NCBI GenBank assembly: GCA_032718475.1
Contig: JAUCBJ010009132.1
Location: forward strand, 114,118-178,117
Source of the DNA: Nemertoderma westbladi
Taxonomy: Eukaryota > Animalia > Xenacoelomorpha
Reading direction: 5' to 3'
Length of the DNA stretch: 64,000 nt
Shown piece after piece: positions 3,125-38,425 of this stretch (positions within the stretch are counted from its first letter, which is position 1; every line of letters starts with the position of its first letter). Below the pieces are notes generated by a model. That model did no database searches and was not told the DNA's origin. It saw nothing but the letters and a program-made list of their open reading frames with translations. Both the position numbers and the translations under genes were made by a program.

Positions 3125-6100
3125 ATGGCTGACACAAGGCAAACTCTGTCAGATAGTCTCCTAGAAACAACAGCCTGTTTCTCAGATCAAAGTGTAGAGA
3201 ATCCCAGACCGAGATCTGAAACCCCTCATACTGTAAGAAGGGCAACCCCTGCAGTGGTTGTGTCAGAACCTAGGTTGGTAGAAAAGATTTCGCAATTTGC
3301 GAAGTTAGTGAAGCGCCGTTGGTCTGCCATAGGCACTCGGGCCCAAGTCAAGCGGGATCAAGAAGAAGCTATAAAACAGCAGCAACCTCCTAGCCAAGAA
3401 CCTAGTTCTCAGCGGCCCGATAGCTCCAGTAGTTCGGATACTGTTGAGCGGACGCCCGAACGCGGAGCGAAGATGGCGGATACGGTTTATGATGAGCGGC
3501 CAACCTATGAAGAATCAACCGACGCCACTTCTTCTCAAGTGGAAAGCGAGGTGGAAAGCGAAGTGGAAAGCGAATTAACAGCAGCAGAGAAGCCGCGAAC
3601 TAGAGACGCCATTGACATCTATCTGTCAGACTATCAGCGATTCATAGGAGACGAAGAGTTGAGGAGACGACTGTCTGGACTTCGCCCTAATAGTGAAGGA
3701 ACCAAGCTTGTGTTGGACGCAATCGATGCGGAAATGTTAGCTGCAAACCAAGCTAAATTTGATTAAAAACTCCACCTCGTTAGAGTCCAAGAAGAACAAG
3801 TAAAGAAAAAACGGATAGAGGACAGAAAGGCAGTAGCAGCGGCGAAAGCGGCAGCGGCAGTGGAAGAGGCAAAAGCGGCAGCGGCAGTGGAAGCGGCAAC
3901 GGCAGTAGCATCGGCGAAACCGGCAGAGGCAGTAGCAGAAGCAAAAGCGGCAGCGGCAGTGGAAGCAGCCAAAGCAGCAGCAGCAATGGCATTGGCAGAA
4001 GCAGAACAGAGGGCGTCTGAAGAGACCACACAACTGGAGTTGGAAAATCTTCAAGAGACGCAAGACAACATAAATAAACAGTTAACTGCTAGTCAAATGC
4101 AGATGATGAGTCGATCTACTCCCAAACGTCAAGAATACACATCATCGGAAGAAGGCGAGACCACCGATCCTGAAGGCGGAGGAAATAGATCTCGTCTAAG
4201 CAGGCGTAGAAAAACATCTCACCGTTATAAATTGCCTGATTTGCCCCCAGCGGTTAGAAGACAACTAGCTAGCACAGACTTAGGTAGTACAGAACCCACA
4301 GAACAAATTATTCAGGTCAAAAGACTCCCTACAATAGTTGATGAGCCTGAAATAATTAGGCCTGTCGTTCCCAAAGCCACTCCTGTGCTAGAGACCCCTG
4401 TACTTCCAGAGCTTAACTCTAAATTCCCTTTACACAGTACTACACTGCCTGTACCCGGTAGAACAGTCCATGAGAATGTCCCTGTCCTGGAAGCTGAGAG
4501 AGAAATCAAAGATTTGTCTCTCGTCGTCCCGCGTCAGCCCGCTACAATGTTGGCGACTCCCGCTTCGGCGGTCGAGTGGGTAGAGGAGTGACGGCGGGGG
4601 ATGAATCTCCTGCTCGGACAGATGCAGGAGACTGTCTACCAACTTAAGGGAACAGTAAGGGAAGGTAGGGCAGAATTGCAAGAAGTGCAGCAAAGTATCG
4701 CGCTGGAACGCGACAAATTAGTCAATATACAAAAGGGTATACCAATACCCCCAGTAACATTGTGTCAACCTGTTAGGTCTGAAGTATTACATGCGCAAGG
4801 TGTGGAGCCTACACGCATCTATACTGCTAGTGAAGTAGAAACTCCTATAGCAAACCCTATTAAGGGTGATTATAAACCTGTTGTTAATGATATTCCCTAT
4901 AGACCTGATAATAATCCGGGAAATTTATATACCGATAATTCGATATTAAATAACACGATGGCCCAAGAAAGCTTTACGCGTCAGATGGCTAGAACAGAAG
5001 CCCGCCAAGCGGGTAAAGTGGGAGAGATCGTCAAATTCAATGGAGATGAGATGAAATGGTTACCTTTCAATGAATATTACAAAGATAGCATACAGAACTC
5101 TGTACTATCTAACGGAGAGAAACTTAGATTCCTCATCAAGTGCTTGGAAGGACCTCCCAAGTTAATGGCGTTAAAGTTTATTGGACATCCAGATGGATTA
5201 AGACAAGTTTGGGATACATTAAACACCAGGTATGGTAACAAGGATAATATAGCTAAGTATTTGTATGCAAAATTAGTAGCCCCCAGAAACTTCCTTAGTA
5301 GCGGGATTATAGAATTTTCCGATGAGATTCAGGAGATCTGTAGACAATTGGACTGGTTAGGTAAGTCTCATGAATATCAGAGTTCCATGGTTATTGGAGC
5401 AGTAGTCTCTACTTTACCAAAGGGTGGAGTATGTACACGTTGGGACAAGAAAGTGTTGTATATGAATGAGCAGCAACGACGAAGTCCTACCATGGCTGAT
5501 CTCATGTCCTTCTTAGATGGTGAAGTAAAACTACAACTCATCAAGCAGTCCAGAGAGAAAACATCGGAAAATAAGGTAAGTGAGAAACCCGTTTCTAGGA
5601 GAAGAGTAACACCAGTGTGTTACACTGACGACGGCGAAAGCCAAGCTTCTCAAGAAGAGGACAGCGGGAAAGACACAGCAAAATCTTACTATGACAACAA
5701 GACCTATAAAGACGTAAGTAAATATAAGTCTCGAACCAGTGACAGGAGAGAACAGGTAACAACAACTCCTCCTACGTCTCCTAAGATAATTCACGGAAGA
5801 AAGCCCGAAGAAAGAACGAGAGTGCATAACGTTACCCAAGGTAAAGTGAGTAACATCAAACCAAAATGTGCGCTGTGCGACGGGCCCCACCGTTTGAGTG
5901 TCTGTGCTGAATTCCTAAAGAAATCCCTGGTAGACAGACGTGAAGTCATGTGGGATAAGCGGTTATGCTATAATTGCCTCAGACAAGGACACCAACGGCG
6001 AACCTGTTACTCCGACGTAAGGTATGCAAAGTGCGGTGCGAAACATCACATCTTGTTACACAGTGAATTCGAACGAAACAACCCGAGTCAGGTAAGTGAG

Positions 6101-7225
6101 CCCGAACTACATGCCCAATTCAGTGATGTAAATGACACAGATCAAGAGTCTGAGATGGAAGGATTCTATACTGACGAATTCTCCGACGCCAACGAATCCT
6201 GTTACCTAATCAATACCGCGGTGTATCGAGCACTTACTTACGAAAAGGACACCGACAATGAGTTTCCCCCAACTACCTTTGACAGACAACCATCTTGGAA
6301 AGCTCCAACTTCCAACGTAGGAATCAGAGAATTTCCTGTAGTGCAGGTAAGAGTTCACGGTCCTAACAAAAGTTACATAGTGAACGCCCTCCTTGACTCC
6401 GGCAGCACAGGAACATTCATCGATCAAGAACTAGCCGAAGATATCTTTGCTGGACAACCCAAATTCCGGACTAAATTGAATATGTCAGGAATTATGCAGG
6501 TTTGGAAATCTACCCTAACGGCAGATTACTATGTAGGTGTGTTGTCCACCCCCCAGGATAAATTAGGAGCACAAGGTATAAGGTCGGTAAAAATGGTGGC
6601 TATAAAGAACTTCGCTACTCGCAAATACTCGCAAATACTCATCGGCCAAAACGCGCATGAGGCGCTCGAGACATTGGAGAAACGGCCTGCTCAACCGCAG
6701 CCACTACAAACCTATGCGGTAAGAACTAGAGTAGGTTGGTACTTCACTGGCCCTTCCCGTAGAACTCTCAAAGAGAGATTACCTCAACAACAGGTATACC
6801 AAGTAAAGGAATGGGAAGTGGAGAGCAGTGATGTGGACGATCCAACTGAGGGAACACCATACTCCTCAGATAATGACGATATTAACTCCAATGTAGATCA
6901 ATGGAGACATTGCCTTGGGACGATTAATCCAGCCGACATCGCTTCCAGAGGAGCAACTCCTCAAGAACTGATAGATACTCCAGGCTGGTTAGGTGGATCC
7001 GACTTCTTAAGTAAAGAAGAAGAAGAATGGCCTCCTCATCTTACCACGGCGGAGATTAGACAGGCCAAGGGAGCGGAGAAAGTAACACAACAACTCAATC
7101 GCCCAGCTAGTCGTTTATGTTTACTGGAAAGAGACCGAAAACTGTCCGGAAACTATGGAAGGCAAGATACTCTTCCTACGACCACTTCCCTAATCCGACA
7201 AATATCTAGGGACTCCATAACGTAA
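3125..7225 (+). pseudogene. BEL/Pao gag-protease polyprotein with two in-frame stops; RT, most of RNase H and integrase deleted
   Basis: ORFs 3125-3766, 3860-4591 and 4601-7225 share one frame, split by TAA (3764) and TGA (4589). Contains a BEL capsid-like block (FNGDEMKWLPF...EKLRFLIKCLEG), Cys/His knuckles (CALC..H..C, CYNC..H..C) and an aspartic protease (LLDSGS), then jumps to the RNase H C-terminal motif WRHCLGTINPADIASRG. Confidence 0.88.
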
Positions 7226-8925: not shown

Positions 8926-10067
8926 TAGATGTTAGTATATCCCTGATAGCCTCAATTTATTTGCGCCTAGCGTAAACTGCCCTACCGCCTGAACGGTACA
9001 ATCCCAATTCAGGTGAAAACACAGCAACCCCCCTAGCCTACAAGTTCTGATGTAACGGACACCGTTGTACGGCAAATAGTCGCACACACACCTGTACTTA
9101 GCAAGAGTTAAGCGTACAGTTTGCTGCACCCTAACCAATGTGTATGCCTTGTACCGGTGTGCCTACGTCCTATCTGCGTACTAGTATCTGCTCTCTCTCC
9201 CTCTCCCCCCGTAGGAATATGAAGGTCTACTGCGGTTTTCCCTGAATCAAGACAGTACAGTCCCTATGATGTAATTTTGGGCTCACAGCGTGTCACTACG
9301 TCTACCTTTTGATCTTTTGGTCTTATACTTAGGTAGCAAGGATCGAACGCTGTCTAACCTTTCAGGCGATGGGCGAATAACTCTAAAGGTATTGCGGGTT
9401 GTCTCTCGTCTACATTCCCGTGATGTTCCCGTTCATTGCTGCGGCCCGATCTCTAGCTGGCCATCCTGTCCCTGAGTTTGTTCACCGTAGTGAATCCATA
9501 GTAAAACAGAAAAGCTGAGAGAATATTCTGACTTTATTACAGAAGATACAATTATAATACAATGTAATCTGAGAATAAACTAAGCACGACAGAATAAATC
9601 TGAGAAGTATAGATATAAGATTGAGATAACTAATGAACGAATCGCACCTTTATATACTAAATTTGTGCTGCAATCAATCGAGAAAATTCTCGATTGTTCT
9701 ATGGGTTCTAACAAGGTTTTAAAGATAGCTTATTGGTCCAGCTAATATATAACTTGCACGACATTGGTTACAATCAAATAACTACAGCCTTATTGGTACA
9801 GACAAATGCAATTAATTTGTAGCGGTTAATTTAAATGAGTTGAAATTCTACACAAAAAATAATTCGCACTTACTAGGATTTGAACTCGATACCTACTATA
9901 CTTATAATTTCCAACGCTCTACCAACTGAGCTACTGAACCACTTGACCGATAGATGCATAATAGATAGAACCAATACGAATGAGAACTCAAAGCAATCTT
10001 TACAAAGTTAGTTCGAATAAAATAAATTTTTGAAAATCCACGGCATTTAGGGAATATAATTCTATAC
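8926..10067 (-). repeat. 3' LTR of element 2 (~1.14 kb)
   Basis: Matches 23569-24710 at constant offset 14643; only 2 substitutions noticed. Minus strand has three CCAAT boxes (~9732-9797), TATATAAA (~9648-9655) and AATAAA (~9533-9538 and ~8956-8961), and ends ...ACTAACA at 8930. Confidence 0.95.
9854..9940 (-). ncRNA. tRNA-like Pol III cassette in 3' LTR (A box, B box, T6 terminator)
   Basis: Minus strand GGTTCAGTAGCTCAGTTGGTAGAGCGTTGG...GAGTTCAAATCC...ATTATTTTTT. The D-stem (GCTC/GAGC) is intact; acceptor, anticodon and T stems do not pair well. Confidence 0.75.
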
Positions 10068-10918
10068 CGCTCCATGAAAACAGGATATTATCGTGCATAA
10101 AATATACGGTTTTCACCAATAATCAATCAAACTATAGAATACTTAGGGCGTACTTACATATTTACAATTAAGTTTCAAACAATACTTCCTTTCTACGTAA
10201 TGATTCGATACAAAATAATTACAAATTCAAACTTTACGTATTTAAGGCTTTACTAAGTAAGTACAATATAAATCTAAATTAAATTCACCAATATAAATCT
10301 ATTGCATCTCAGATATTGCATAAATTCAAACAATTACAAATACAAATAAATGAAAACAATAAGAAAGGCTCGCGAGTCTTCCATCTACTATTGCATCTCA
10401 AATATTGCATAAATTCAAGTAATTACAAATACTTTCGTACCTAAATGTAGATTGCATAAGTTTTGGAATAATTACAAATATGAGTCTTTCTGAGCACAAA
10501 TTTTTCTGTCTATAAAACTTTCTCTTTAGGTACAAATACTGCTTATAAGATATAAATTGCATAATATTCGGAACAATACAAATTGCATAAGTTTGGAATA
10601 ATATAAATTGTATAAGTTCGGAATAATTACAAATATAAAATATAAATTCTTACTAAATATAAATCTTACTAACTATAAGTCTTTACTTAAATATAAATAT
10701 AAACTGCATAAGTTTAGAATAATATAAACCTTTGCATCTCAAATATGAAACATAAATCTTTCAAATATAAGTTCCTTCTAAATATAAACTTTCTAAATTT
10801 CATAAATTCGGAACAATACAAATTGCATAAGTTTTCTAAATATAAAACATATAATTCAAAATAAATCACAAATCATAAGAAAGGCTCACGAGTCTTCCGT
10901 CCACCCTTGCCCTCCCTT

Positions 10919-12118
10919 TTATCGCTTAGTGGATCGAGCCCTGCCGCGTCCTCGAAAACTGCGCACAGGTGACTTTGCTCGCGATATGGGACTAATGGGG
11001 CGAGTCACTGGTTTACTTGGGACGTTGAGAGACGGTGCGACTATTTCCTCGCAAATTCGTCTATTTGGCATCCCAAAACCTCGACCAATTCCTCGTGACC
11101 GATCAGTCGTCACTACAGTTGGTAGAACGTCTGGGAACGCGTGAGAAGCGGACGACGTAGACCCAAGAGTAGCTTGCGCCCCCTGTTGATCAGCTGGTGT
11201 ATGTCCCGATCCTCCTACCGGTTCTCTTGGAAGTGATACCGTATCCCGAGTAACTCGAATAGTCGGCTCAACTCCCTTGCGTTCTTCTACATTAATAATT
11301 TTCTTCAATTGTTGGCCCACCTTCTGGACCCGTATGATCCTACCCTGCCCGTCCTCCCGAGGGTGACGTGCAGACGGCGCAACCGGAGTGGCTGATATAT
11401 TCGTCGCCTCTAGGACCTCCTCTTCCTCGAATACGCTCGCTCGTATACGTTTGTGGTAAAAGGCGGCTCGGTACGCCCATGCGACGGTTAACCAAGCTCC
11501 CTTATTCCGTTTTTCAGTTCGGAAACGATCGAATTCACCATACGTAATCCGATTAACGACTTTCTGAAAATTCCACGTGTTTTTGTTATCCGGGTGAATT
11601 TGTAACAGATACTCGCGCACCACTCGGAATCCGCTGTCGTGGGGCAAAATATCGACAACCTCGATAAGTTCGTCATATTGGGGCATAGCGGAGATATATC
11701 CTTCCGACATCATCGTCTGGGGATTTACCGCCCAAAATCCGAGATGCGCTCTCATCGGAAACCGTCTTCTTTGTGCCGATACATGTTCGTCGGCTAAATC
11801 TTCCCACTCATCAAATAACTTCCTCACGAGTTTTACAGATTCGTGTTCATAAGGTATGTCTCTCAGTTGGCATTCAGATGCTCGATGTCCCTTTATATTG
11901 CAGTAAGTACATTGAGCCATAAATCTCCAGCAAGTATAAAAGGTATGAGACCCTTGATCCCCACACCATCCACAGATTAGCTGAGTCGTAGTAATGTGCT
12001 TTCCACTGCACTTTGCCATATGATGTCCAGCGACGCCACATTTACTACACATCGTATTAGCAGGGTACCACACTCGTTCGTATATAAGATCTCCAATCGG
12101 TCGAGCGCTTCCTCCCAT
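10919..12118 (-). CDS. Accessory ORF of element 2: 399-aa protein with three CCHC zinc knuckles and an RG-rich basic tail
   Basis: CSKCGVAGHHMAKC, CGWCGDQGSHTFYTC, CTYCNIKGHRASEC; C-terminus SFRGRGRARSTKR; same strand as pol, between IN and the 3' LTR. Confidence 0.8.
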   Translation of the reverse strand: MGGSARPIGDLIYERVWYPANTMCSKCGVAGHHMAKCSGKHITTTQLICGWCGDQGSHTFYTCWRFMAQCTYCNIKGHRASECQLRDIPYEHESVKLVRKLFDEWEDLADEHVSAQRRRFPMRAHLGFWAVNPQTMMSEGYISAMPQYDELIEVVDILPHDSGFRVVREYLLQIHPDNKNTWNFQKVVNRITYGEFDRFRTEKRNKGAWLTVAWAYRAAFYHKRIRASVFEEEEVLEATNISATPVAPSARHPREDGQGRIIRVQKVGQQLKKIINVEERKGVEPTIRVTRDTVSLPREPVGGSGHTPADQQGAQATLGSTSSASHAFPDVLPTVVTTDRSRGIGRGFGMPNRRICEEIVAPSLNVPSKPVTRPISPISRAKSPVRSFRGRGRARSTKR

Positions 12119-12127
12119 ACTATAATT

Positions 12128-12729
12128 TTAATCATCTGGGTCTATGGGTTGGTAGGTTTCTGAAGGTTGTAGGCAAACTATAGCATCTGTTGCTTCAAGT
12201 TGTCGAATCTCCGTCTGAGATTTCTTCGGGAGGTTCCTTTCGATCTCAAGAAGTTCCTCTAAAGGATCGTCGGCGATCGTAGTAGTTACTTCGAATTCAT
12301 CACCAAGGTGACCGATAGGCGCGCGCGTCTGCCGTGATTCATCCGTAATCTCCACGATACGTTCTCCTTCATAGGGTAACAATGTAAACATAGATGGTCT
12401 TTCGATAAGAGATCCCGCACAGCGAAGATACACGTCTCGAAATATGCTAAATCCTGCTCGAGTAAAGGCATTGCTGTCTTTGCGAGCTTCGCTGTACTTT
12501 CTGATAATTCCTTTATACCAAATATAGTGTAGTCTTTTGCTCCAAATCGTTCGAATGAAGCTGCCGCCTCCTCTTGGATATCATATCCCCATCTCGGCTC
12601 TCTTTGTATCCCTTTCTCCATAATTAGAGGTGTAGTTACATAATCATTACTACTAGAGGGAATACAACAGAGTTTGTGGTTAGTTGTGAGGAGACGTGAG
12701 AGTTTCGTCTGCCTTTTGGGCTTCGACAA
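12128..12729 (-). pseudogene. Upstream accessory ORF (or N-terminal part of the knuckle ORF), frameshifted near 12435
   Basis: ORFs 12286-12729 and 12128-12433 overlap in different frames. The latter is in frame with 10919-12118, separated by TAA plus 9 nt. Confidence 0.5.
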
Positions 12730-13280
12730 CGCTCTAACCTCCTACCCATAGCCTAAGATCTAAGGTTTCTTTAATGACACGCTGCTTCTTATCTAAAATT
12801 TTTTGCCGAAGTAAAACGAATTTGGGCTAAACTGGCCGTGAGTCTAAAATACTCACCTTTTGATCCCAAACTATTATCAGAAAATAAGCAGTCAAGAATT
12901 AGTAATAAATATAGGGGAGTCTATTTGACGTAACTTATTGAAACAAGACCGTGTAAAATTTAATTAAAATTTTAAGAAAGGCTCGCAAGTCTTCCTCTCT
13001 TGTTTCTCTAATTTTTAAGTTCCACCCGACTGTACCCTGAAATCTATTCACTGGAGAAAATTTTAAAAATTTTTCAAATCCAAATGGATTGTCTAAAATT
13101 TCGAAAATGTCTCAATATTGTGAGTTCCAAGTAGAATTCCATTTCTTATACCTACAAATCCCGCTCCTATGTGACACATAAGGGTACTACCCTCAATGTT
13201 CACATATAAAGACAATGGAATTCTACCGCTGTCCTTACTACGGTGTACAGGTACGTGGAAATCTATTTGTAAACTCCTAA

Positions 13281-14500
13281 TTATTTACTAGTATTAGGTG
13301 GAGATTTGTAATCTCCAGACTCGTTACGAGTCTCTTCAAGGAGTACGAGACGTTGAGTCGGTCTGTCTACTGTACGACCGTCAATTGTCCGTACCGTCAC
13401 AGTTCTTGTCACTCCATCCATAAAATGACACCTGTTATCCAGAAGCGTCTTTTCAGATTCACTTCTGCCAACAGCACGTGATCTCCCGGCTTTAATGCAC
13501 GGGTGTTATTGTACCATGTTGTTCTGGCAGAAATAGAGGGCAAATAATGGTTTTGCCATATTTCCCAGAATTTGTTAGCCAGTAGTTGCGTGATTTTCCA
13601 CGCTTTTCTACCATAGCTGTCGCTTTCTATTGGAATAGAAATCGGTGTCAAAGTCGTCGGTGCCTGCATTAGCAGGTGTGCCGGTGTCAAAGCAAACTGA
13701 GATTGTTTGTCATCGGGTACTAATACTATTGGTCTAGTATTTAGTATTGCCTCGATTTCAACAAACAATGTTGTCAGTTGGTCGTCTGTTAATATGTGGT
13801 TTACTGGAATGACCTTTGCCATTGCTGTCTTTATAGATCTAATCAGTCTCTCCCAGACTCCGCCTCTCCAAGGACTATCTGGAGGATTGAACTTCCAAAC
13901 AATCTTGTGAGGTTGCAGTTCGTTCGAGATTTGATCATGATCTAATTTCTTAAAGGCTCTAGCAATCTCATTCCGAGCACCAACGAAGTTTGTCCCTTGG
14001 TCTGAGTACAAGCATTTTACTAGTCCGCGTCTAGCGATAAATCGCCGCAGTGCTAGTATAAACGCGTTGGTGGAAAGATCCATCACACGTTCAATGTGAA
14101 CTGCCCTACTGGACATACATGTGAAAATCAGTCCCCAGCGTTTTACTAGTATACGTCCACGTTTCGTATGTATGGGACCAAAGCAATCAATTCCAGTCTC
14201 TGTAAAAGGTGGTCTGAATGCTTGAAGTCGTGCTTGTGGTAGTTCACTCATTTCTTGGGTACCTATTCTAGAATGTACCTTTTTACAAATAATACACGTA
14301 CGTGTCACTGAACTTAATGCTTTACTGGGTCTAATTAATACAAATCTAGTACGTAAGTAGGAAAGACAGTGGTGTCTTCCAGCGTGTTTCAGATGTAAAT
14401 GTGCGTCCAGTATCATTGCACGTTGTAGTTCGTGATGTTGCGGTATTATTATTGGGTACCTAAAGTTTGTGTTAAAGTCAATGTTTTGAAGCCGAGATTT
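13281..14500 (-). pseudogene. BEL/Pao integrase domain (frameshifted continuation of pol)
   Basis: HHCC zinc finger; DDE motifs IDCFG / SDQGTNF / GVWER. A frameshift near 14500 restores SRLQNIDFNTNFRYPIIIP. A second lesion near 13420 continues as DGVTRTVTVRT...RPTQRLVLLEE to a stop at 13281. Confidence 0.92.
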
Positions 14501-17500
14501 ATGACAATTAAGCCATTATAAATTATCGGACTCCAACTCAGTATCGGTGACGACTTGATTGGTTGACCTTGACTTATAGATGTGAATTCGCGCGCGAAAT
14601 ATCTCAGTTGGTAATGGCGAATTAATTTAATCTCACACCTGTCAATCTCAGCCAATGTAAGTCGACGTGTGAAGTCACGTTTGCCTTTAACGTATTGTAC
14701 AAAACGTACAATCCACGCTAATTTTCGGCAAGCGTTTGACCAAGAGTCTGTTAAGTTTACAATACGGTCGACATAAGTATTTGTGACGTCATCAGGTAAG
14801 TCAATGGAGAACTTGGAAGGTTTTGAATTACTAGAAGGGCCCACGGGTCCGCCGGTAAGTATTCCCTTGTTGACTGTTGATCCGTCCGGGTCTACAAGTA
14901 ATTTGTCCTTCTTTGTCTTCTTACCTTGATTGTCGGTACTTTGTAAGTCGATCGCTAATGGTGGTTTGAACTCTATGGGGTCAGCAGGTTTCGGTAAACT
15001 TATTTTCCTGCCGACATTAATCCCAGGTCTCACCGTAGGTTGTAGGTTCGGTATGTCTCTTGAGCGCAAAGTAACACCTGTATTTACATTAGCGTAGGTA
15101 CTACCCACATCTGTAATACATGAGGTTTCACCGTGCTTATGGTTGCTCAAGTGTGTCAAAATTGGTAGTTTGTCAATACAAGGCCGCTCCAATAGGGAAA
15201 CTGCGGCTTTATTGTTAGTCAATACATTACTAGTGTCTAGTCGACTGTCTAGTAGTGTGTCTGGCGATACGTCTGGTAACGTATCTGGTTGTTTGTCAAT
15301 AGAAGGCCGCTCCAATAGGGAAACTGCGGCTTTACTGTTTGTCAGTGCGTTACTAACGTCTGGTGGAACATTTTGTGATACGTCTGGCAAAATGTCTGGT
15401 TGGCTGTCTAGTAACGTGTCTGGTTGACCGTCTGGCGATATGTCTGGTTGACCGTCTGGCGATATGTCTGGTGTAGAAAGGCTCGCAAGTCTTCCTCTCT
15501 TGACCTTTGAAGTTATATCTTTCCATTTCGCCTTCGGTTTTTTCTTGAGTTTCGCCGCCGTCGTCTTTTTCTTTGTCTTCCCCTTTTTTGGTTTCTTGAT
15601 TTCGGCGTCCTTAGGAATGGTGTTGGACTTGTTGTCGTATAACGGAGGCCAATCTTGTGTCGATTTCTGCAAGAACTGGGGTCCGTGTTGCCAAAACTCT
15701 TTGTTCTCCGGTTTACAGAATTCCTCAGGCATCATTCCTCGCGACGCAATATCAGCTGGGTTTTGTGGTCCGGGACAATGTCGCCAATCCTCTTTTATCG
15801 AACGGTCTAGAATCTCTGCGCGACGGTTAGCTACGAATGTCTTGAATTCGAGTGTGTCGTTGTTTATGTAAAATAAAACCAACGTCGCGTCAGTCCAATA
15901 AAATATCTGTAAACTCGACTGTAGTTCTGTCTGTATGAGGTTCACGATGGTGGTTGACAGGGTCGCGGCTTGTAGCTCGGCTCGTGGTGTCGTCATATAC
16001 TTAGTAGGCATGGTCTTAGCCTTGGAAGTAATGAGCGAAACATCGAACTCGTCTGATTCTACTTGTCTGCGCAAATACGCTGCCACACCAAACCCGTTGT
16101 CACTGGCGTCGGAAAAACAGTGTAGTTCCAAGTTGTCAGGAAATGTACTCTGTAATGGAAAGTAAACCCTGGGTATGAAATAATCCTCTAGCGAAGACAA
16201 TTCCGCCTCCCAGGTCTTCCATAAGTCCACTTGGTCTGATGAGATCGGCTCGTCCCATGTTAGTCCATCCTTCCATATACTGCGCATATAAATGCGAGCT
16301 TGCAGTATTACTGGACTGATGAATCCTAACGGATCGAACAATCGGCTCAACTTTGACAAGCATGATCTCTTGGTCAGTGTGTTTCCTTGACTGTCCAGTC
16401 TCACCTTCACTCGAAAGTTGTCTGTGTTTGGGTCCCAAAAGAGCCCCAACACCTTAGTCGTCGGTAGTGGTTCGAACTCTAGGTCTATATCACCACCTCC
16501 ACGCTCAGTAGTTCCGAATGAGTCAACTAATTCGGCACTGTTTGAGGCGAATTTGGTGAGGTTAAAACCTCCGCTCGCCAAGCAGTCCCGTAATTGATGT
16601 GCTACTGTTGTAGCACGTTCTACTGTGTCGCAACTTTGTAAACCGTCATCAACGTAAAAGTCACGTTCTACAATTCTAACTATCTCTGGGTCATACAGAT
16701 GTTTCTGATCTCTAGCGGCTTGCTTCAAGGCGTACATCGTACAATTTGGGCTGTCTCTGGCACCGAAGACGCGAACTTGCATTTGGTAAGTCGCTGGTGG
16801 TAGACTTAAGTCCCCTTCCGGATACCAGAGGAACCGCAAACTGTCTCTGTCTCGCTCTAACGCTTTCACTTGGTGAAACATCGCTTCAACGTCGCAAGTA
16901 AAGGCTACTTGGCGCTGACGGAAGCGCATAATCACCCCCATAAGATAGTTATTCATGTTCGGTCCATCCATCAATTCACTATTGAGGGACATTCCCTCAA
17001 ACAGAGCCGCACAGTCATTGACTACGCGTACTTTATCTGGTTTGTCGGGATGTCTCACATAGTGATGTGGCAAGTAGTACGTCTGGTCTGTCACTCGCTC
17101 CGGGTTAGTCATTCGGATAGCGTATCCCTTCGTCAAATACGTCTCCATCTGAGTGTTATACTGCAGATGGGCTTTCTCGTCCTTTAATAGACGTTGTCGG
17201 ATTGAGTGTAGACGTCTTAAAGCCAGTGGGTAGTTATTTATAAGTTTAGGACTTTGGCTACGCCATAACATACCCACCTCGTAATGTCCGTCCTCCGTCT
17301 GTCGGATAGTATCCTCCATGATCTTTAGAGATTGTTTCTCCTGTTCCGACATACAAGGGTCGTAGCTACCAGGTTCAGCTGTATCTTGTTCTAACCACCT
17401 GATAGTCTTCTCCGTTAATTCTTTGTCCAAGGCGGCTTGTTCCAACTGATGAGTTTTCAACGCGTCATCGTCGATATCGACGGGCACTGTTGAGGTTATT

Positions 17501-20500
17501 GGGGTAGGTAGACTCGCAAGCCTATCATCTGTCGTCGATGGAATCTCTAGCTGATTCGTCTTCCCCCCAATTTCTAAACTCACCTTGTGGGTTAGCTGCT
17601 CCTTGTGACTTATCATACTAGTTACACGTCTGTCATGTTTTGTCGACTGTAGTGTAGTATGGTTCACGTCGTGTGAAAAGGAATGAATTGAGTTTGTAGT
17701 CAATAAACTACATGTACTCTGTACGTCGTCTTCCTCGTCACTTACGTCTAGTGTGCGCACAGGCGCTCGAGTATACCACCCTATCGGCGTTCTGCAGGCG
17801 TATGCGTTTCCTGCTACAACTGCCGATGGTCTGGTTTCCCACACCTGGTGTAGGTTGAATTGGTCCGTCCCGATCAGCATTGCTACCGATCTATAATTGA
17901 CAGGACATTCGGGCACACCAAGGTGTCTGAAATACTTACGGTCCTCCAAAGATTGTTCCGGCACTGGACCTAGTAGGTTACTAAAGTCCTTCGTGGCCGC
18001 AAAGGTTAGATCTCTAAAGGGCAACAAAGACCTCTCCCTCTCGCTGTGTTGCGATTTTGGAAGAAGAGAGTCTAAGTCCAACTTAACTCGTGTCACTGGT
18101 ATTGCACGCTGTCCGTGCATACTACTTACTGTATAACTGACGTGCTTACCTTGTCTAAGATCTGTTACGACGTCAGCTATCTTTTCATCTACGTAACTGT
18201 GAGATGAGGCTGAGTCTAGAATCGCGTAAATCCTCTTACTCCCTTTTGTGCCAGTAACTTTTATCGGGATTACACTGAATCCCTTCAGTTGGTCAGTGGT
18301 CAGGAGCGCGATTGACGGTTGTTCGTCTCCATTTGAATATTCGTCGTCTTCTGATTCTTCGTCCGACGATCCGGATTGTTCTGAAAAGCAATCCTCTATA
18401 TGGGTCACGAAAGTCGGAGTCGTTTTCGATTCTCGTTTTCGGTAAGCCGCATCACATCTCGCTGCTGCTTCCGGGTGTTCCCTGGCGAAGCGTTTCGTCG
18501 GCGTGTGGCTGTCTGTGTGGAGCAGACCGTCGTGGTTGCGTCCACAGGATGGACAAGTGTCGGTATTTGGGCAATCCTTACGGACGTGTCCGTGTCGCGT
18601 ACACCGCCAACAAGAGTCCAGTGGCCGTATCTGCAGCCGTCGTTCTTCCGAGTTCAACTCGCGAAATTGTCGACAACCTCGTAACTTGTGACCAATATAC
18701 CGCTTACCTAGATGTTCGCAGTATTGGCAGCCGTTGAAGTCGGTGCTGAGTTGCTGTCTCGTCTGTTTCGTCCCAATGGGCGCAGATACTCTATTACCGT
18801 CTGAGAATTGTCGTGATTCCGTCGGTGTGGCGTAAGTGGCCGTCTTTGTGGATGTTGTCTGGGGTTTTTGTCGGTTGGAGGATGGCAGTGTGATCCCTTC
18901 TGCCACGATGTGCTGGTCGGTATAGTTAGATCGAGTTTCTACTACCGCCTCCCTGGATATTAAAAGGTACACATCTTCTAATTTTAGGAATCCTCCTCGC
19001 TCCTCTCGCTGGTATTCGACCTTCCTCCACTCCCGACGAAGTCGATGGTGGAGTCGTCCTATTATCTTTAATAGGACTGTAGGTGTATTCCCGTAATCAA
19101 GTTGTCCAATTGATCTTAAGGTAGTGATAGCGTTCTTAATCTCGTCAGCCAGTTTTAGTAAGTCGACGGGTTTAGTGATAGCCCCTCCCTTACAGAGTTC
19201 TTCTATTACTGACCTGGCCATACTCACTGTACCTCCGTATATCGAAGTCAAACGATCGTACGCTAGTTCGAAAGCGTCTGGTACACCGACGAAAGTCTCC
19301 GCCAAACGTTTAGGTTCTCCTGACAACGTTTGGAGCAGGTAATTGAACTTCTCCCGTGATGTAAAGGCGCACACGGCGATCTGGGATTCAATATAGTCTA
19401 CGAAGGTATGCCAGTGTTTTGAGCTACCGGAGAACTTCGGTGGTTGTTGTACCGGCAATCCCTGTCTGGCTGCGAATTTCGCTATCTCCTCGGCAACGTT
19501 CAGAGTTTCGCGTCCTTGGTTGGTAACTTGGTTGATATCCCTTCTTGGCGCTTTTCCCTGATACGATATGGGGTTTGAAGGTACCGGTCTTTGTGGTTCC
19601 TTCGGGTGTCTATTGTGTTCGAATTCGGAATTTCTCGAACTGTCGGTGTAACCTTCCTCCAGACGTTCCTCAATCCGGGCCAACTTGTTGACAATGTCGG
19701 CGAACTGTTGCGCACCGATCGCGCCCGCTGGTGGTAACGCCTTCTGTGTCGGTGTATTCTGTGGAGGATTGTCTGCAAAGGAGTTGTCTGAACGCTCGCG
19801 TTTATATTCGTCGGCCGCCCCTGTTCTAAATACCTCGCGTTTCGGGTAATCCGATTCGCTCGAAGTACTACTATCATCTGGATATGGTGGTCGACGTGCT
19901 CGCGTTCGTTGCGTTGTTCGAATTCTAACGTTCCGTTTCGGAACATCGTCCACTGATCTCCGTTGTTCGGTAGGCTCACAAGTCTTCCTCGAAGTCGTAG
20001 ATTGCGATGTAAACTGAACCGGTCGCGTATCCACTGTTCTCCGTTGTTCGGTAGGCTCACAAGTCTTCCTCGAAGTCGTAGATTGCGATGTAAACTGAAC
20101 CGGTCGCGTATCCACTGTTCTCCGTTGTTCGGTAGGCTCACAAGTCTTCCTCGAAGTCGTAGATTGCGATGTAAACTGGTTCGGTGGGCGAATGACAGCA
20201 TTCGAAACAACTGGCCTTGTAGGTCGAAACGTCATTGGATAAGCGTAATGTGTAACGGGTTTAGGTGTCAAAGGTGGACTCACCTGTTTTGTCGTCAGTA
20301 GTGCGGGTCTGGTCAATAAACTACTACGATCTGTAATCGGTGGGTTACTTACCTTGACTCTCGGAATAGGCGACGACGTTGCTCTTGGCGGTATAAACTC
20401 GTTCGGAATAACAAACCTGTGTTCCGTCGCACCATGGATAGGAGAAATATCACTACTACCCGCAATCGAAACAGGTTCCTTAGTCGTAACCGGTGCAAAC

Positions 20501-21996
20501 ATATGAGTTACCTGTGGGAATCGTTGACACACGTCTTTTACTAATTGCCGTTCCCGTCCGGGTGCTCCTACGCTTCCTTCCTTCTTCCGTTCCTGAATTT
20601 GGCGATGTCTTACCTCTAACTGGTCCAAATCATGTCCGTCACGAGATCTCATCGATCGATCGCGGGCCTTTTGATCCAGATCTTCCTCAGCGTTCGCTAA
20701 TTCTCTCGCCTTCTTCTCAAGTTCGAAATGAAGTTTAGCTGTCTTCTCTCGTTGTTCCGTTTGTCGTTGTTGCGCCTCAAATTCTGCTTGTCGTATGGCG
20801 GATTGAGCTTTTATTTGCCGTGTTTTCATTTCGGCCCGTGCTTCCGAAACTAACCTGTCTCGTTCTAATTCCGCCGCTGCCGCTGCCGCTTGTCGCTCTG
20901 ACTCTGCCGCTGCCGCTGCCGCTTGTCGCTCTGACTCTGCCGCTGCCGCTGCCGCTTGTCGCTCTGACTCTGCCGCTGCCGCTGCCGCTTGTCGGGCAAT
21001 GTCTACCTCTAACCTTTCTACTTCAGCTGCTTCTAATTCAGCTTGTTCCTGTAGATGAGAGATTCTCGCTATATTCGCAACGCGTAGCTTCTCTTCCTCT
21101 ACTGCTGCCTGCATCACTAGAAGTTGAGCTTGTTCCTCCATTTCTCGTCGTTGTCGGCAGAATTCTTGCTGTTGTCGAGCAACTTCTGACGTGACTATAC
21201 TTCCCTCGCAGATTTCGCTACGAATACTCACCAGCGATTGATTTAGTATTCCCGGTGCCGATTCGATTTGTGCGAGTGAAGTTTCCCTCGTAGCCTCCGG
21301 CACGGTTTCCCAATCCCCGACGTCTTCGCCGCACATGCGCAAGTGATCCGTCAGGTGTTTCAATTGTCCATCCAGTCGGTACAGTTCCTGTTCTTCCTCG
21401 GGTTGTAATAATTCGTCCGAAACTGACTCACCTAACAACTGGTCCGCTTGTTCCTGTTGTATCTGTCTAATCGTCGACTTAAACTGAATCAGTTTCTCTC
21501 TAGTGATCATTAGTTTCTCTAGGATTCTAAGTTGAGTATCCATGTCCTGTCTCTGTCTAGCTAGATCTTGTAAGCCAACTAAATTATCTACGGACTTATA
21601 TACTTTACTCTGTACTCTAACCTGGAGGGTGTAGAACTCGAATCGAGACATCGGAGCGGTCAACCCGTCTAATATGCGTTGGCCTTCTCCAATACTCCTG
21701 GTTATATGCGCCATGTAACCTCCGACGCTTCTAACCACACTTTCTGTGCTTCCTGCTGAACTTACCATTTCCGTTTCCCTATATCTAGGTTGCGGAACAG
21801 TTAGAAAGTCCTCGGTCCTGCCGTCGCCTCGTACTACGGCATCCGGTACTCCCGTTGGATGTACTGGTGACGCACACGGTGTAGGTTCGGTAGGCTCGCG
21901 AGTCTTCCCCTGTTGTTCTCCCGCTGCTGACTTATCCGCGTCACATGAGTCATAGTCGGTTTGTGTGTTCTTCGTATAGTCTTGTTTGTCACTCAT
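14449..21996 (-). CDS. BEL/Pao Gag-Pol polyprotein (Gag, protease, RT, RNase H), 2515 aa up to the frameshift
   Basis: Capsid-like PKFSGSSKHWHTF; three Cys/His knuckles; protease ILDSAS; RT YYLPHH, KVRVVND, FYVDD; RNase H HCFSDAS, PRAELQAA, WTDA, NPADIASRG. Confidence 0.96.
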   Translation of the reverse strand: MSDKQDYTKNTQTDYDSCDADKSAAGEQQGKTREPTEPTPCASPVHPTGVPDAVVRGDGRTEDFLTVPQPRYRETEMVSSAGSTESVVRSVGGYMAHITRSIGEGQRILDGLTAPMSRFEFYTLQVRVQSKVYKSVDNLVGLQDLARQRQDMDTQLRILEKLMITREKLIQFKSTIRQIQQEQADQLLGESVSDELLQPEEEQELYRLDGQLKHLTDHLRMCGEDVGDWETVPEATRETSLAQIESAPGILNQSLVSIRSEICEGSIVTSEVARQQQEFCRQRREMEEQAQLLVMQAAVEEEKLRVANIARISHLQEQAELEAAEVERLEVDIARQAAAAAAESERQAAAAAAESERQAAAAAAESERQAAAAAAELERDRLVSEARAEMKTRQIKAQSAIRQAEFEAQQRQTEQREKTAKLHFELEKKARELANAEEDLDQKARDRSMRSRDGHDLDQLEVRHRQIQERKKEGSVGAPGRERQLVKDVCQRFPQVTHMFAPVTTKEPVSIAGSSDISPIHGATEHRFVIPNEFIPPRATSSPIPRVKVSNPPITDRSSLLTRPALLTTKQVSPPLTPKPVTHYAYPMTFRPTRPVVSNAVIRPPNQFTSQSTTSRKTCEPTEQRRTVDTRPVQFTSQSTTSRKTCEPTEQRRTVDTRPVQFTSQSTTSRKTCEPTEQRRSVDDVPKRNVRIRTTQRTRARRPPYPDDSSTSSESDYPKREVFRTGAADEYKRERSDNSFADNPPQNTPTQKALPPAGAIGAQQFADIVNKLARIEERLEEGYTDSSRNSEFEHNRHPKEPQRPVPSNPISYQGKAPRRDINQVTNQGRETLNVAEEIAKFAARQGLPVQQPPKFSGSSKHWHTFVDYIESQIAVCAFTSREKFNYLLQTLSGEPKRLAETFVGVPDAFELAYDRLTSIYGGTVSMARSVIEELCKGGAITKPVDLLKLADEIKNAITTLRSIGQLDYGNTPTVLLKIIGRLHHRLRREWRKVEYQREERGGFLKLEDVYLLISREAVVETRSNYTDQHIVAEGITLPSSNRQKPQTTSTKTATYATPTESRQFSDGNRVSAPIGTKQTRQQLSTDFNGCQYCEHLGKRYIGHKLRGCRQFRELNSEERRLQIRPLDSCWRCTRHGHVRKDCPNTDTCPSCGRNHDGLLHTDSHTPTKRFAREHPEAAARCDAAYRKRESKTTPTFVTHIEDCFSEQSGSSDEESEDDEYSNGDEQPSIALLTTDQLKGFSVIPIKVTGTKGSKRIYAILDSASSHSYVDEKIADVVTDLRQGKHVSYTVSSMHGQRAIPVTRVKLDLDSLLPKSQHSERERSLLPFRDLTFAATKDFSNLLGPVPEQSLEDRKYFRHLGVPECPVNYRSVAMLIGTDQFNLHQVWETRPSAVVAGNAYACRTPIGWYTRAPVRTLDVSDEEDDVQSTCSLLTTNSIHSFSHDVNHTTLQSTKHDRRVTSMISHKEQLTHKVSLEIGGKTNQLEIPSTTDDRLASLPTPITSTVPVDIDDDALKTHQLEQAALDKELTEKTIRWLEQDTAEPGSYDPCMSEQEKQSLKIMEDTIRQTEDGHYEVGMLWRSQSPKLINNYPLALRRLHSIRQRLLKDEKAHLQYNTQMETYLTKGYAIRMTNPERVTDQTYYLPHHYVRHPDKPDKVRVVNDCAALFEGMSLNSELMDGPNMNNYLMGVIMRFRQRQVAFTCDVEAMFHQVKALERDRDSLRFLWYPEGDLSLPPATYQMQVRVFGARDSPNCTMYALKQAARDQKHLYDPEIVRIVERDFYVDDGLQSCDTVERATTVAHQLRDCLASGGFNLTKFASNSAELVDSFGTTERGGGDIDLEFEPLPTTKVLGLFWDPNTDNFRVKVRLDSQGNTLTKRSCLSKLSRLFDPLGFISPVILQARIYMRSIWKDGLTWDEPISSDQVDLWKTWEAELSSLEDYFIPRVYFPLQSTFPDNLELHCFSDASDNGFGVAAYLRRQVESDEFDVSLITSKAKTMPTKYMTTPRAELQAATLSTTIVNLIQTELQSSLQIFYWTDATLVLFYINNDTLEFKTFVANRRAEILDRSIKEDWRHCPGPQNPADIASRGMMPEEFCKPENKEFWQHGPQFLQKSTQDWPPLYDNKSNTIPKDAEIKKPKKGKTKKKTTAAKLKKKPKAKWKDITSKVKRGRLASLSTPDISPDGQPDISPDGQPDTLLDSQPDILPDVSQNVPPDVSNALTNSKAAVSLLERPSIDKQPDTLPDVSPDTLLDSRLDTSNVLTNNKAAVSLLERPCIDKLPILTHLSNHKHGETSCITDVGSTYANVNTGVTLRSRDIPNLQPTVRPGINVGRKISLPKPADPIEFKPPLAIDLQSTDNQGKKTKKDKLLVDPDGSTVNKGILTGGPVGPSSNSKPSKFSIDLPDDVTNTYVDRIVNLTDSWSNACRKLAWIVRFVQYVKGKRDFTRRLTLAEIDRCEIKLIRHYQLRYFAREFTSISQGQPIKSSPILSWSPIIYNGLIVINLGFKTLTLTQTLGTQ
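19950..20177. repeat. 81-bp tandem repeat (~3 copies) within gag
   Basis: Encodes QFTSQSTTSRKTCEPTEQRRTVDTRPV repeats; each copy carries the dispersed hairpin motif. Confidence 0.9.
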
Positions 21997-23568
21997 TTCG
22001 GTAGTTGTAAGTCAAGTAAAGTGAGTGTCAAAGTATCGAGTTTTACCGTATTTATATCTAAACGGTACTAATTACAGTCTTATAAAATTAGCCTACCGGC
22101 TGATTTTATAGCAGATGGATAAAATTAGCCTAAACGGCCAATTTTACAGCAAATAAATGTCACGGAATAAGTATATAATAAAATTAGCCTAGCGGCCAAT
22201 TTTACAAATAAATCGGATAACGATATGCGTTATCAAAAGGTAAATTAAATACAATAATACGGACTAATTCAGCAATGAACAAAGAAATCGTACGGAATGC
22301 ATAAATACTTGAGACAGTGGAACCCACAATAATTTTTAACTAATACGGTAATGCCTAACTTATTTATGCAACTTTTCGAACTCACCCACTCCAATAATTC
22401 TCCAGAAAAACAGATTCCCAGATACAAACCGAACGTGAACCTTTCCGTTTTTAACGTTGCGGACGAAACGCGATTTTCCCAACCAAAGTTGTTGAGTTAT
22501 CTATCTCCCAAACTTGCTAAACACGGTCTTGCTCCCGTTACAGTCTAGAAATGAGTTCTGAATCCTGAAAAACAAAAGAGTTAGGTTTCACTTTACGAAA
22601 TTTTTTGTACCGGTACAATATGGTATTTAAACCCTTTTAAACACCGGTATTCAATTCCAAAAAATTTTACACGCGGTTCAAATCAAATTTTATTTCAAAA
22701 ATTAGCACTTAGCTAATCAAATATAAATTTTTACCTCAAAATACAAAATTTTCAAATAACTTTAGTCCTACCGAACCGTAGTTCAGTAAAACATATTCCT
22801 ACTAAATTGGAGAGATACGCCTATTCCTACTATCGGAAGAGACGGTAACAATACCTGCAATATCCTACTGTAAAGTTTGTAAATCAAATCATAAATCCGA
22901 CCTTCTCACCAAAACAGTAAACCCCAAGTAAGCGAATATATTGCAGTATCGATCTCTTTTAACCGGTGAGGCAGAAAACAGTCTACGAGCAGACAAACTT
23001 CGATAAAACAAAATCCCGCGCAGCGAATCCTAAAATCAGGCTGACTCACTGACGGACTAAGGGGCTCGTATACTTTGCCGCGGTGTGATTTATATGGTTG
23101 GGCAAAGGGACGCTAGCTAGGTACAGAGCAGATTTAGAGATGTCTAACTAGCGGGCAAAGTGCAGTAAGGACGAAAGTTAATTTTATATATTTCGAGGTG
23201 TAAATAATTTCTAACGCGCGTGTGTTAATTCTGAACGGTCAAAGCAGTTTTGCTCCTTCACATATATAATTACTGGGTACGGTGTGCATTTTACGAATAT
23301 TCTAATTTGTAACTTGTAGGTCCAATACTCACGAATGATAAGGTTCCTTCCCCTCTTGCGTATTTCCAGGACTCAAATTCAGGCATAAGGTTAATACTAC
23401 GCCCAGAATTCGGCAATTTTAGGTACCAGGTCCCTGATACTAAGAAGAGATGTGTTAGTTTACTACTGTAGGCGTACGGGTACTAATAGCTATCCTGGCT
23501 CCTATCTAGAATTTTAGTCACCCAGGTAGTCCGGGTAACTTCCTATTAGGGCGTTGGCGGGGACACGG

Positions 23569-24711
23569 TAGATGTTAGTATATCCCTGATAGCCTCAATT
23601 TATTTGCGCCTAGCGTAAACTGCCCTACCGCCTGAACGGTACAATCCCAATTCAGGTGAAAACACAGCAACCCCCCTAGCCTACAAGTTCTGATGTAACG
23701 GACACCGTTGTACGGCAAATAGTCGCACACACACCTGTACTTAGCAAGAGTTAAGCGTACAGTTTGCTGCACCCTAACCAATGTGTATGCCTTGTACCGG
23801 TGTGCCTACGTCCTATCTGCGTACTAGTATCTGCTCTCTCTCCCTCTCCCCCCGTAGGAATATGAAGGTCTACTGCGGTTTTCCCTGAATCAAGACAGTA
23901 CAGTCCCTATGATGTAATTTTGGGCTCACAGCGTGTCACTACGTCTACCTGTTGATCTTTTGGTCTTACACTTAGGTAGCAAGGATCGAACGCTGTCTAA
24001 CCTTTCAGGCGATGGGCGAATAACTCTAAAGGTATTGCGGGTTGTCTCTCGTCTACATTCCCGTGATGTTCCCGTTCATTGCTGCGGCCCGATCTCTAGC
24101 TGGCCATCCTGTCCCTGAGTTTGTTCACCGTAGTGAATCCATAGTAAAACAGAAAAGCTGAGAGAATATTCTGACTTTATTACAGAAGATACAATTATAA
24201 TACAATGTAATCTGAGAATAAACTAAGCACGACAGAATAAATCTGAGAAGTATAGATATAAGATTGAGATAACTAATGAACGAATCGCACCTTTATATAC
24301 TAAATTTGTGCTGCAATCAATCGAGAAAATTCTCGATTGTTCTATGGGTTCTAACAAGGTTTTAAAGATAGCTTATTGGTCCAGCTAATATATAACTTGC
24401 ACGACATTGGTTACAATCAAATAACTACAGCCTTATTGGTACAGACAAATGCAATTAATTTGTAGCGGTTAATTTAAATGAGTTGAAATTCTACACAAAA
24501 AATAATTCGCACTTACTAGGATTTGAACTCGATACCTACTATACTTATAATTTCCAACGCTCTACCAACTGAGCTACTGAACCACTTGACCGATAGATGC
24601 ATAATAGATAGAACCAATACGAATGAGAACTCAAAGCAATCTTTACAAAGTTAGTTCGAATAAAATAAATTTTTGAAAATCCACGGCATTTAGGGAATAT
24701 AATTCTATACA
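23569..24711 (-). repeat. 5' LTR of element 2
   Basis: Begins TGTATAG (minus strand, 24711) and ends ACTAACA (23573); near-identical to 8926-10067. Confidence 0.95.
24497..24583 (-). ncRNA. tRNA-like Pol III cassette in 5' LTR
   Basis: Identical to 9854-9940. Confidence 0.75.

Positions 24712-37068: not shown

Positions 37069-38425
<1,357 letters not shown>

Follow-up and report, generated by a model that had tools for sequence, protein, structure and literature searches.

A dispersed 20-nucleotide wobble hairpin motif along a BEL/Pao retrotransposon of Nemertoderma westbladi and its possible role as an RNA-level mark

A stretch of 64,000 nucleotides (nt) from Nemertoderma westbladi (assembly GCA_032718475.1, contig JAUCBJ010009132.1, positions 114,118 to 178,117; hereafter the window) contains a 15.8-kb BEL/Pao long terminal repeat (LTR) retrotransposon (8926–24710, minus strand), which holds all top matches to a short recurrent motif. 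The motif is present on the sense strand of the element in 11 copies at nine sites, and its variants preserve base pairing in a 20-nt hairpin with a wobble pair in the stem. We propose that the motif is a stem-loop of the sense RNA to which one of the element's own CCHC zinc-knuckle proteins binds, marking the transcript for export or packaging, a reading to which we give a probability of about one half (0.52).

AGGCTCRCRAGTCTTCC has eight exact plus-strand copies in the window, at 10366, 10882, 12979, 15479, 19972, 20053, 20134 and 21892, and a variant copy with two mismatches lies at 17507–17523. With up to three mismatches allowed, 12 matches were found where 0.41 were expected, and none of 100 shuffles reached 12, so the motif noticed in an earlier sequence-only reading of the window is enriched over shuffled background. 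Of the three additional matches, two re-detect known copies on the other strand and one, at 12317, marks a genuine site (12314–12333). In an unbiased gapped-word count of the element, this motif was the only word to recur at six places separated from one another; a neighbouring BEL relative (element 1, 3092–7225) contained no copy of it. The sequence-only reading had listed nine copies, all of which are present; since three of them (19972, 20053 and 20134) belong to one 81-bp tandem array, they amount to seven independent sites, and two further sense-strand sites (12314–12333 and 14834–14853) had been missed. The copies are as follows.

21889–21908, minus strand: hairpin site 1, gag codons 35–41, loop CGCG (motif match)
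20131–20150, minus strand: hairpin site 2a, in the 81-bp tandem unit, loop UGUG (motif match, tandem-repeat search)
20050–20069, minus strand: hairpin site 2b, in the 81-bp tandem unit (motif match, tandem-repeat search)
19969–19988, minus strand: hairpin site 2c, in the 81-bp tandem unit (motif match, tandem-repeat search)
19949–20178, no strand: 81-bp tandem repeat, 2.8 copies, triplicating the hairpin within gag (tandem-repeat search)
17507–17526, minus strand: hairpin site 3 (site 17526), in the linker between protease and reverse transcriptase (RT), with G·U in place of A·C and a 5′ flank that differs in length among family members (motif match, contigs)
15476–15495, minus strand: hairpin site 4, past RNase H (motif match)
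14834–14853, minus strand: hairpin site 5 (new; site 14853), base-pair exchanges at 4/17 and at 8/13, with A·C and YGYG retained (structure descriptor)
12976–12995, minus strand: hairpin site 6, in the non-coding spacer that separates the integrase from the accessory open reading frame (ORF) (motif match)
12314–12333, minus strand: hairpin site 7 (new; site 12333), within the accessory ORF pieces, pair 8/13 changed to G-C (three-mismatch match, matrix, descriptor)
10879–10898, minus strand: hairpin site 8, 21 nt past the accessory ORF stop (motif match)
10363–10382, minus strand: hairpin site 9, 3′ non-coding, in a unit tandemly duplicated in other copies (motif match, contigs)

The stretch at 14361–14380 (minus strand; E 1.0), with the wrong loop (CCAC) and the wrong middle pair (A-U), was not counted as a twelfth copy. 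It is a perfect 8-bp hairpin with the outer letters of the motif, located in the HHCC region of the integrase, and is possibly a decayed copy.

The variation among the copies provides the structural evidence. Across the eight distinct sequences, pairs 1/20, 5/16 and 7/14 never vary, and pair 6/15, two pairs below the loop, is a wobble in every sequence (A·C or G·U). Pair 8/13 is U-A in six sequences, G-C in one and C-G in one; pair 4/17 is A-U in seven and G-C in one; pair 2/19 is G·U in five and G-C in two; and pair 3/18 is loose, being unpaired in four. Eight of the 20 positions are invariant, including the guanines at loop positions 2 and 4 (G2 and G4; 9/9 sites). The stems of the two new sites exchange pairs (U-A to G-C or C-G; A-U to G-C) yet keep the A·C pair, the YGYG loop and the G..C ends, a pattern more in keeping with a hairpin of a single strand than with a double-stranded DNA (dsDNA) site. 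At site 14853 the two changed pairs flank the retained A·C, which a single arm-to-arm copying event would presumably have erased. Moreover, the variation between G-C and G·U at pair 2/19 points to the sense strand.

The new sites were characterized with a matrix and with a structure descriptor. A matrix made from six sites and used to rank window positions gave 19.4 bits to 12314–12333, a score attained in one of 1500 shuffles. A descriptor of structure alone, which fixed no stem letters and asked for a YGYG loop, four Watson-Crick pairs and A·C or G·U in the middle, recovered the nine known copies plus the two new sense sites, where 0.06 (1500 shuffles) and 0.04 (200 shuffles) were expected, and had no match outside the element in 36–40 kb of non-satellite DNA of the window. 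Control descriptors with a Watson-Crick or a reversed-wobble (C·A/U·G) middle pair gave no new sense match; when any middle pair was allowed, the same two sites were the only new sense matches (0.6 expected), both with A·C and GG..C ends. A covariance model reported all 11 copies at E<0.001, as expected by construction, and no other site under E=1.

Other interpretations of the same letters were rejected. A GNRA register fails because two sites have C or G at position 13 and because the stem is not prolonged; for an ADAR site, the stem is too short. The ratio of observed to expected CpG is 0.86–1.28 across regions of the element, against 0.52–0.81 in the actin/LINE region of the window, which speaks against methyl-CpG decay as the origin of the YGYG loop; 9 of the 34 listed family transitions lie in a CpG context, compared with a background of 23%. 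The consensus sequences of the host factors BANP, p53, SMAD and Su(H), judged by eye, are each broken at several sites.

Six of the nine sites lie inside ORFs. The coding copies are read in two frames, as KT(R/C)EPT at amino acids (aa) 35 and 621 and as (G/D)RLASL at aa 1496 and 2173, which confirms the claim that copies occur both in non-coding DNA and in two frames of gag-pol; selection at the peptide level was rejected on this ground. Under the codon use of the ORF, the chance that synonymous codon choice would yield the motif letters is 3e-4 to 8e-3 per coding site (four sites). Taken together, the two frames, the non-coding copies and these codon probabilities support the suggested nucleic-acid-level signal. 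The 28-nt identity described between non-coding 12975 and coding 15475 is also exact (10+14+4 nt).

The distribution of the sites is less regular than had been thought. The seven independent sites are separated by 516, 2097, 2500, 2031, 2543 and 1839 nt; the largest gap (2543 nt) is smaller than expected under uniform placement (P=0.006), P is 0.016 for the coefficient of variation (CV) of the gaps, and the largest-gap P is 0.002 when placement is confined to a list of linker regions drawn up by ourselves. Adding the two new sites (gaps of 516, 1435, 662, 1858, 642, 2031, 2543 and 1839 nt) weakens this regularity to P=0.044 for the largest gap and P=0.038 for the CV. A strict periodicity of 2–2.5 kb is therefore not supported, as gaps among the nine sites range from 516 to 2543 nt; a fair statement is coverage without a gap above 2.55 kb, crowded around the accessory gene, in or directly around which four of the nine sites lie. 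The LTRs and the 1.56-kb leader, the places in which one would look for DNA sites of the promoter type, contain no copy, and this counts in favour of a signal in RNA.

Several observations bear on how the copies arose. Similarity between sites ends 0–10 bases beyond the 14-nt core (21 site pairs). Neighbouring sites share more of their flanks (28 nt for the pair 15495 and 12995, and 7 nt on the 3′ side for the pair 21908 and 20150), which suggests spread by short-tract copying. Contigs of the same family were taken from sequencing runs designated X1 and X2 (one sample), X3 and X4 (further runs); a fifth run of low depth, X5, presumed to be RNA, was left out of the evidence. X3 and X4 each yielded one contig with a tandem duplication of 10354–10523, a segment that contains one site. 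Another observation is an X3 contig that departs from the window sequence exactly at 10366, the edge of the motif, and continues with a motif flank of the other class and 255 unrelated bases; it may represent another site or a recombinant. None of the joints examined (15 of 51) was motif-to-motif. Among the 40 of 630 substitutions and 12 of 36 insertions or deletions listed for the family, none falls in a site, which is uninformative since fewer than one would be expected.

The candidate binder is encoded downstream of the integrase, where the following features were recognized.

10919–12127, minus strand: main piece of the accessory ORF, 402 aa, with three CCHC-type knuckles, a middle region without assignment and an Arg/Ser/Gly-rich tail; candidate hairpin binder (translation; zf-CCHC E 0.002, below the cut-off)
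12128–12741, minus strand: upstream ORF pieces (12128–12580 and 12286–12741), probably the disrupted first part of that accessory gene (ORF list; inference)
12871–12904, minus strand: putative splice signals ahead of the accessory ORF, namely a branch point, a pyrimidine tract and an AG acceptor (read from the sequence; inference)

The pieces at 12286–12741, 12128–12580 and 10919–12127 are likely one accessory gene split by a frame break and a stop. Its product appears to be an orphan knuckle protein without a close homologue: none of 3673 candidates was homologous, HMMER gave three weak matches (two to the knuckles only and one to a marginal repeat protein), and the matches of an atlas search were all under 0.9. 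A single-sequence structure model reached a pLDDT of 36. Gag also carries three Cys/His knuckles at approximately aa 1095–1165, as read off the translation.

According to the reading that we prefer, the 20-nt motif would fold as a short stem-loop in the sense RNA of the element, and its weak stem would be stabilised by a bound CCHC zinc-knuckle protein of the element, most likely the accessory ORF product. The choice between this protein and the nucleocapsid (NC) part of Gag tilts only slightly towards the former, because four sites lie in or around the accessory gene and because element 1 lacks the motif. The protein may then coat the long genomic RNA and license its nuclear export and hand-over to packaging. 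Copies would have spread by short-tract copying and tandem duplication into tolerant places such as linkers and spacers, and would have been kept where they close long unmarked gaps. In HIV-1, NC knuckles pocket G2 and G4 of the GGAG and GGUG tetraloops (PMC7599994; this and the other papers cited by identifier are drawn on in partial text), and the loop of the present motif, which fixes G2 and G4, matches that mode of recognition. Retroviral psi hairpins thus share with the motif a tetraloop with G at positions 2 and 4 that is pocketed by two knuckles, but they cluster in the 5′ leader, whereas here the leader is empty and the copies lie downstream.

Other systems resemble parts of this arrangement. 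The dispersed packaging signals of single-stranded RNA viruses and of the hepatitis B virus (HBV) pregenomic RNA consist of many short stem-loops with a common loop motif, also in coding sequence, and their number and spacing matter (PMC6281560, partial text). The nine sites described here likewise have a common loop, YGYG, on a covarying stem whose predicted fold is weak; they differ in that the copies are far more alike (8/20 positions invariant), are few (nine sites in 13.5 kb) and lie in a retrotransposon, with a binder that is a candidate. A further parallel is CERV of Cer1, an accessory Cys-rich protein of an LTR element that is needed for export of the genomic RNA (PMC10309623); the element here likewise has a candidate accessory Cys-rich protein, one with CCHC-type knuckles. 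No mention of a stem-loop or cis-acting element was found in the available part of the CERV paper. No match named CERV was returned by the homologue searches with the accessory protein, which included no direct comparison with CERV. The Rev response element (RRE) is one large clustered structure, and the system here differs from Rev/RRE in having 20-nt dispersed sites and no single large clustered response element. The constitutive transport elements (CTE/gamma-CTE) bound by NXF1 were rejected as a model, since AAGACA in the loop of a long stem-loop (PMC4174252, in part) was found in 0/9 sites, and so was the SPRE of endogenous retroviruses (a 3′-proximal 17-nt core between C-rich flanks), whose core as given in the accessible text of PMC8579622 shares by inspection only GGAAG with the motif.

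A number of results weigh against this reading. The sense 20-mers have energies of −0.4 to −2.0 kcal/mol at 37 °C for eight of the nine reported copies, with −4.2 for site 17526; with 60-nt flanks, the stem pair probability averages 0.05–0.28 in the sense versus 0.46–0.80 in the antisense orientation; the hairpin is mostly unformed in context at 10–37 °C, while the antisense strand folds better; and RNAalifold yields no consensus structure. The stable free fold of the sense RNA that had been supposed is consequently not supported, but the earlier hairpin proposal (a YGYG loop with an A·C/G·U wobble) is supported by the pair-keeping double changes in the two new sites and by the contigs described below for the copy at 17508. 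Folding programs assign A·C no pairing energy; even allowing for this, the fold would still need a protein. The structural case hence rests on covariation rather than on energy, and the strand call on pair 2/19 and the loop guanines. The pairing shuffle counts of 12/500 and 9/500 are partly circular: the two new sites were selected for pairing, the descriptor was written after site 12333 was known, and site 14853 had already ranked low (8.3 bits) in the matrix scan before the descriptor.

Further points against it concern site 17526, the accessory gene and the lack of relatives. The copy at 17508 had been interpreted as a G-U variant; its window form scores 24.5 bits inverted versus 12.3 bits in the sense orientation, so that the G·U reading needed additional evidence from contigs. 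Nine more bases at the 5′ edge of this site are present in three X1 contigs, two X2 contigs (same sample) and two X4 contigs. This longer form carries the usual sense GGA flank and, apart from two synonymous changes that turn the A·C pair of positions 6 and 15 into G·U, then agrees with the consensus, which supports the earlier interpretation; it also produces a tie, with two changes each for the sense and inverted readings. As the inverted reading needs an inversion besides its two changes, we judge the sense reading to be about twice as likely. C·A+ has been described as isosteric with G·U (PMC5769748, in part). No variant at ≥1% (at least 1%) was seen in family contigs across 17489–17554, so the family data neither show nor exclude constraint on the motif. 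In addition, the accessory gene is in pieces in the present copy, the 20-nt sites fall far short of RRE or CTE in size, and metagenome and viral scans produced no relative with DNA that could be used.

Two alternatives stand closest to the preferred reading, both unlikely in our view and to a similar degree. The first is a pseudo-palindromic dsDNA site for a dimeric factor of the element or the host that keeps the gene body open, as in the anti-silencing systems of VANC and TnpA, with 17526 as an inverted copy. The motif is indeed a near-palindrome, and the inverted score of the window form of 17526 and the weak sense RNA fold would both be accommodated. VANDAL/VANC and Spm TnpA share with the present case an element-specific short motif in one orientation, multiplied in tandem, and an element-encoded accessory protein (PMC5735166; 10.64898/2026.08.24.746577; a further source for such dsDNA sites is 10.1101/2024.09.27.615353; all in part), and the same-orientation, tandem-grown arrays of VANC targets (PMC5735166) may be compared with the 81-bp array and the 10354–10523 duplication. 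However, the motifs of VANC and TnpA are 8–10-bp dsDNA sites of plant DNA transposons, mainly non-coding in the case of VANC21, whereas the motif here covaries in a hairpin-like manner and lies in coding linkers. A conserved, mainly non-coding dsDNA motif of the VANC type was rejected on these grounds, as stem letters covary and six of nine sites are in ORFs. Pairs 8/13 and 4/17, which change only by complementary double substitutions, the empty LTRs and leader, and the absence of CpG depletion in the element that would suggest a methylation arms race also argue against a dsDNA site. CCHC knuckles bind mainly single strands, which is a further point against it.

The second is a single-stranded DNA hairpin on the minus-strand cDNA, with a G·T pair and a CRCR loop, which would act during reverse transcription as a pause, as a strand-transfer site or as an extra plus-strand start for the 15-kb template. 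Covariation is blind to strand, and the antisense strand folds better both as RNA and as DNA; the DNA energies are just 0 to −2 kcal/mol, which weakens this point. Coverage without a gap above 2.55 kb, purine-rich 15-mers ahead of five of the seven reported sites (10–13 of 15 purines against a background of 54%) and the X3 contig departing at 10366 with the flank of the other motif class would also fit. In REP and attC hairpins, a mismatch tells the strands apart, which offers an analogy. On the other hand, pair 2/19 varies between G-C and G·U in the sense strand, no motif-to-motif joint was seen among the 15 of 51, and known internal plus-strand origins are purine tracts rather than hairpins.

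Somewhat less probable again is a sense-RNA hairpin read by a host protein (an export adaptor, or a stability or anti-termination factor) instead of an element protein. The hairpin evidence applies to it equally, and 6/9 sites include AAGAC, which makes up all but the last letter of AAGACA, an NXF1-binding motif that gained activity as its copy number increased (PMC4174252, in part); but the full AAGACA is present in 0/9, the AAGAC letters lie in the stem rather than in the loop and are changed at three sites, the element has no Rfam match, and the motif is absent from element 1. It is improbable that the copies are traces without function, left in tolerant linkers when template switching copied short tracts: linkers tolerate insertions and neighbouring copies share the flanks given above, but most site pairs lose similarity within a few bases of the 20-mer, the core is maintained in two frames and in non-coding DNA, and the changes preserve pairing.

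If the sense-RNA stem-loop reading holds, it may bear on how LTR retrotransposons select, protect and export their own genomic RNA, which is known for few elements and with signals confined to one region. A sequence-defined 20-nt hairpin along a whole element, beside a candidate binder, makes this question testable with short oligonucleotides and one small domain, and a specific pair would constitute a compact natural RNA-tag/protein pair. Since the family is present at high depth in the host runs, assembled copies could allow a proper covariation test. A bolder version, which we regard as doubtful, would be a private RNA-tagging system consisting of a new triple-knuckle protein and a wobble hairpin specific to the family. 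Copies of the hairpin would have been placed in all linkers that tolerate them, leaving no more than ~2.5 kb of the transcript unmarked at a stretch, and the system would be an analogue of VANC at the level of RNA, by which a very long transcript evades host surveillance. What appears to be new is the dispersed covarying 20-nt hairpin plus the orphan knuckle protein; the BEL/Pao host element is of a known kind, and the proposed mode of action resembles that of known RNA cis-elements.

Searches for relatives and precedents gave little. The metagenome scan yielded 27 pattern matches and one distant 1.3-kb locus, in which the motif is absent, and the viral scan for relatives yielded 0 loci; a pattern scan of viral contigs gave two loci with a single copy each, taken as chance. 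A peptide trace of the motif (KT[RC]EP or GRL[AV]S[LP]) was found in none of 185/185 homologous proteins examined, which is weak evidence at such distance. No Rfam family matched the element (window positions 1–30000, E<=1), the single weak match at 26749 being outside it. No repeated dispersed hairpin was found in the literature for BEL/Pao or other LTR retrotransposons, in a coverage that left out most subscription journals.

The host element itself appears, from its sequence, to be an ordinary and young member of the BEL/Pao family, with the following parts.

23569–24710, minus strand: 5′ LTR, 1142 bp, no motif copy (LTR-to-LTR comparison, motif scans)
8926–10067, minus strand: 3′ LTR, 1142 bp, no motif copy (LTR-to-LTR comparison, motif scans)
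14449–22011, minus strand: gag-protease-RT-RNase H polyprotein ORF, 2520 aa (DUF1759 E 6e-11, Peptidase_A17 E 8e-42)
13409–14515, minus strand: integrase part in a different frame, 3′ end lost in the present copy (Integrase_H2C2, DUF5641 positions 2–61 of 94)

The two 1142-bp LTRs flank the element in direct orientation and differ by two mismatches. The 2520-aa ORF stops at a frame break ahead of the integrase part, and the breaks in the present copy lie at ~14450–14515 and near 13410. The domain order is gag, protease (PR), RT, RNase H (RH) and integrase (IN) with the Pao-type domains DUF1759, Peptidase_A17, Integrase_H2C2 and DUF5641, and PF05380 is present in nearly all polyprotein homologues, whose identity is 43% at most (65 matches in one search; the best 120 of 419 in another). 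Known BEL/Pao elements (Belpaoviridae) share the LTRs, the single gag-PR-RT-RH-IN order and DUF1759/Peptidase_A17/DUF5641; the element here differs in its extra knuckle ORF past the integrase. Past the 5′ LTR (23544–23568) there is no tRNA primer site of the TGG type, the LTR ends are TA rather than CA, and the target-site duplication is imperfect. The element belongs to a multi-copy, high-depth family with subfamilies: four DNA runs (three samples, one organism) contain 59–70% of the sampled words, and thousands of contigs in X1 and X4 map to it at 80–100% likeness. Each LTR has a tRNA-like stretch (~24500–24585 and 9857–9942, minus strand) with A- and B-box-like words by eye and no ARAGORN call. 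A 27-nt repeat occurs three times immediately upstream of gag (22082–22204), and the 3′ non-coding part (10214–10857) consists of AT-rich degenerate 25–33-nt repeats of a length that varies between copies.

Element 1 (3092–7225, plus strand) is a truncated and broken BEL relative in which gag-protease runs directly into the terminal part of RNase H. It has an Ala-rich repeat similar to the one in the 15.8-kb element and is 22% identical to that element in gag-protease. It contains one hairpin look-alike (7157–7176, plus strand; E 5.8) with the same outer stem including a G·U and another loop, maybe a chance match or a family-specific variant. The look-alike lies 43 codons past the RNase H ‘WPP’, versus 52 codons for the site of the 15.8-kb element in the same frame, and has no second copy in element 1.

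The remainder of the window contains two actin ORFs that are ~84% alike (26501–27481 and 37069–38073, minus strand) and a non-LTR-type reverse transcriptase ORF (30968–31906, minus strand). This actin/RT region is CpG-depleted (0.52–0.81), as under gene-body methylation. Satellites of 51, 37 and 45/46 bp occupy 39210–40388, 47251–48798 and 49849–64000, the last extending over more than 14 kb, and a long fold-back element is present at 41751–42635.

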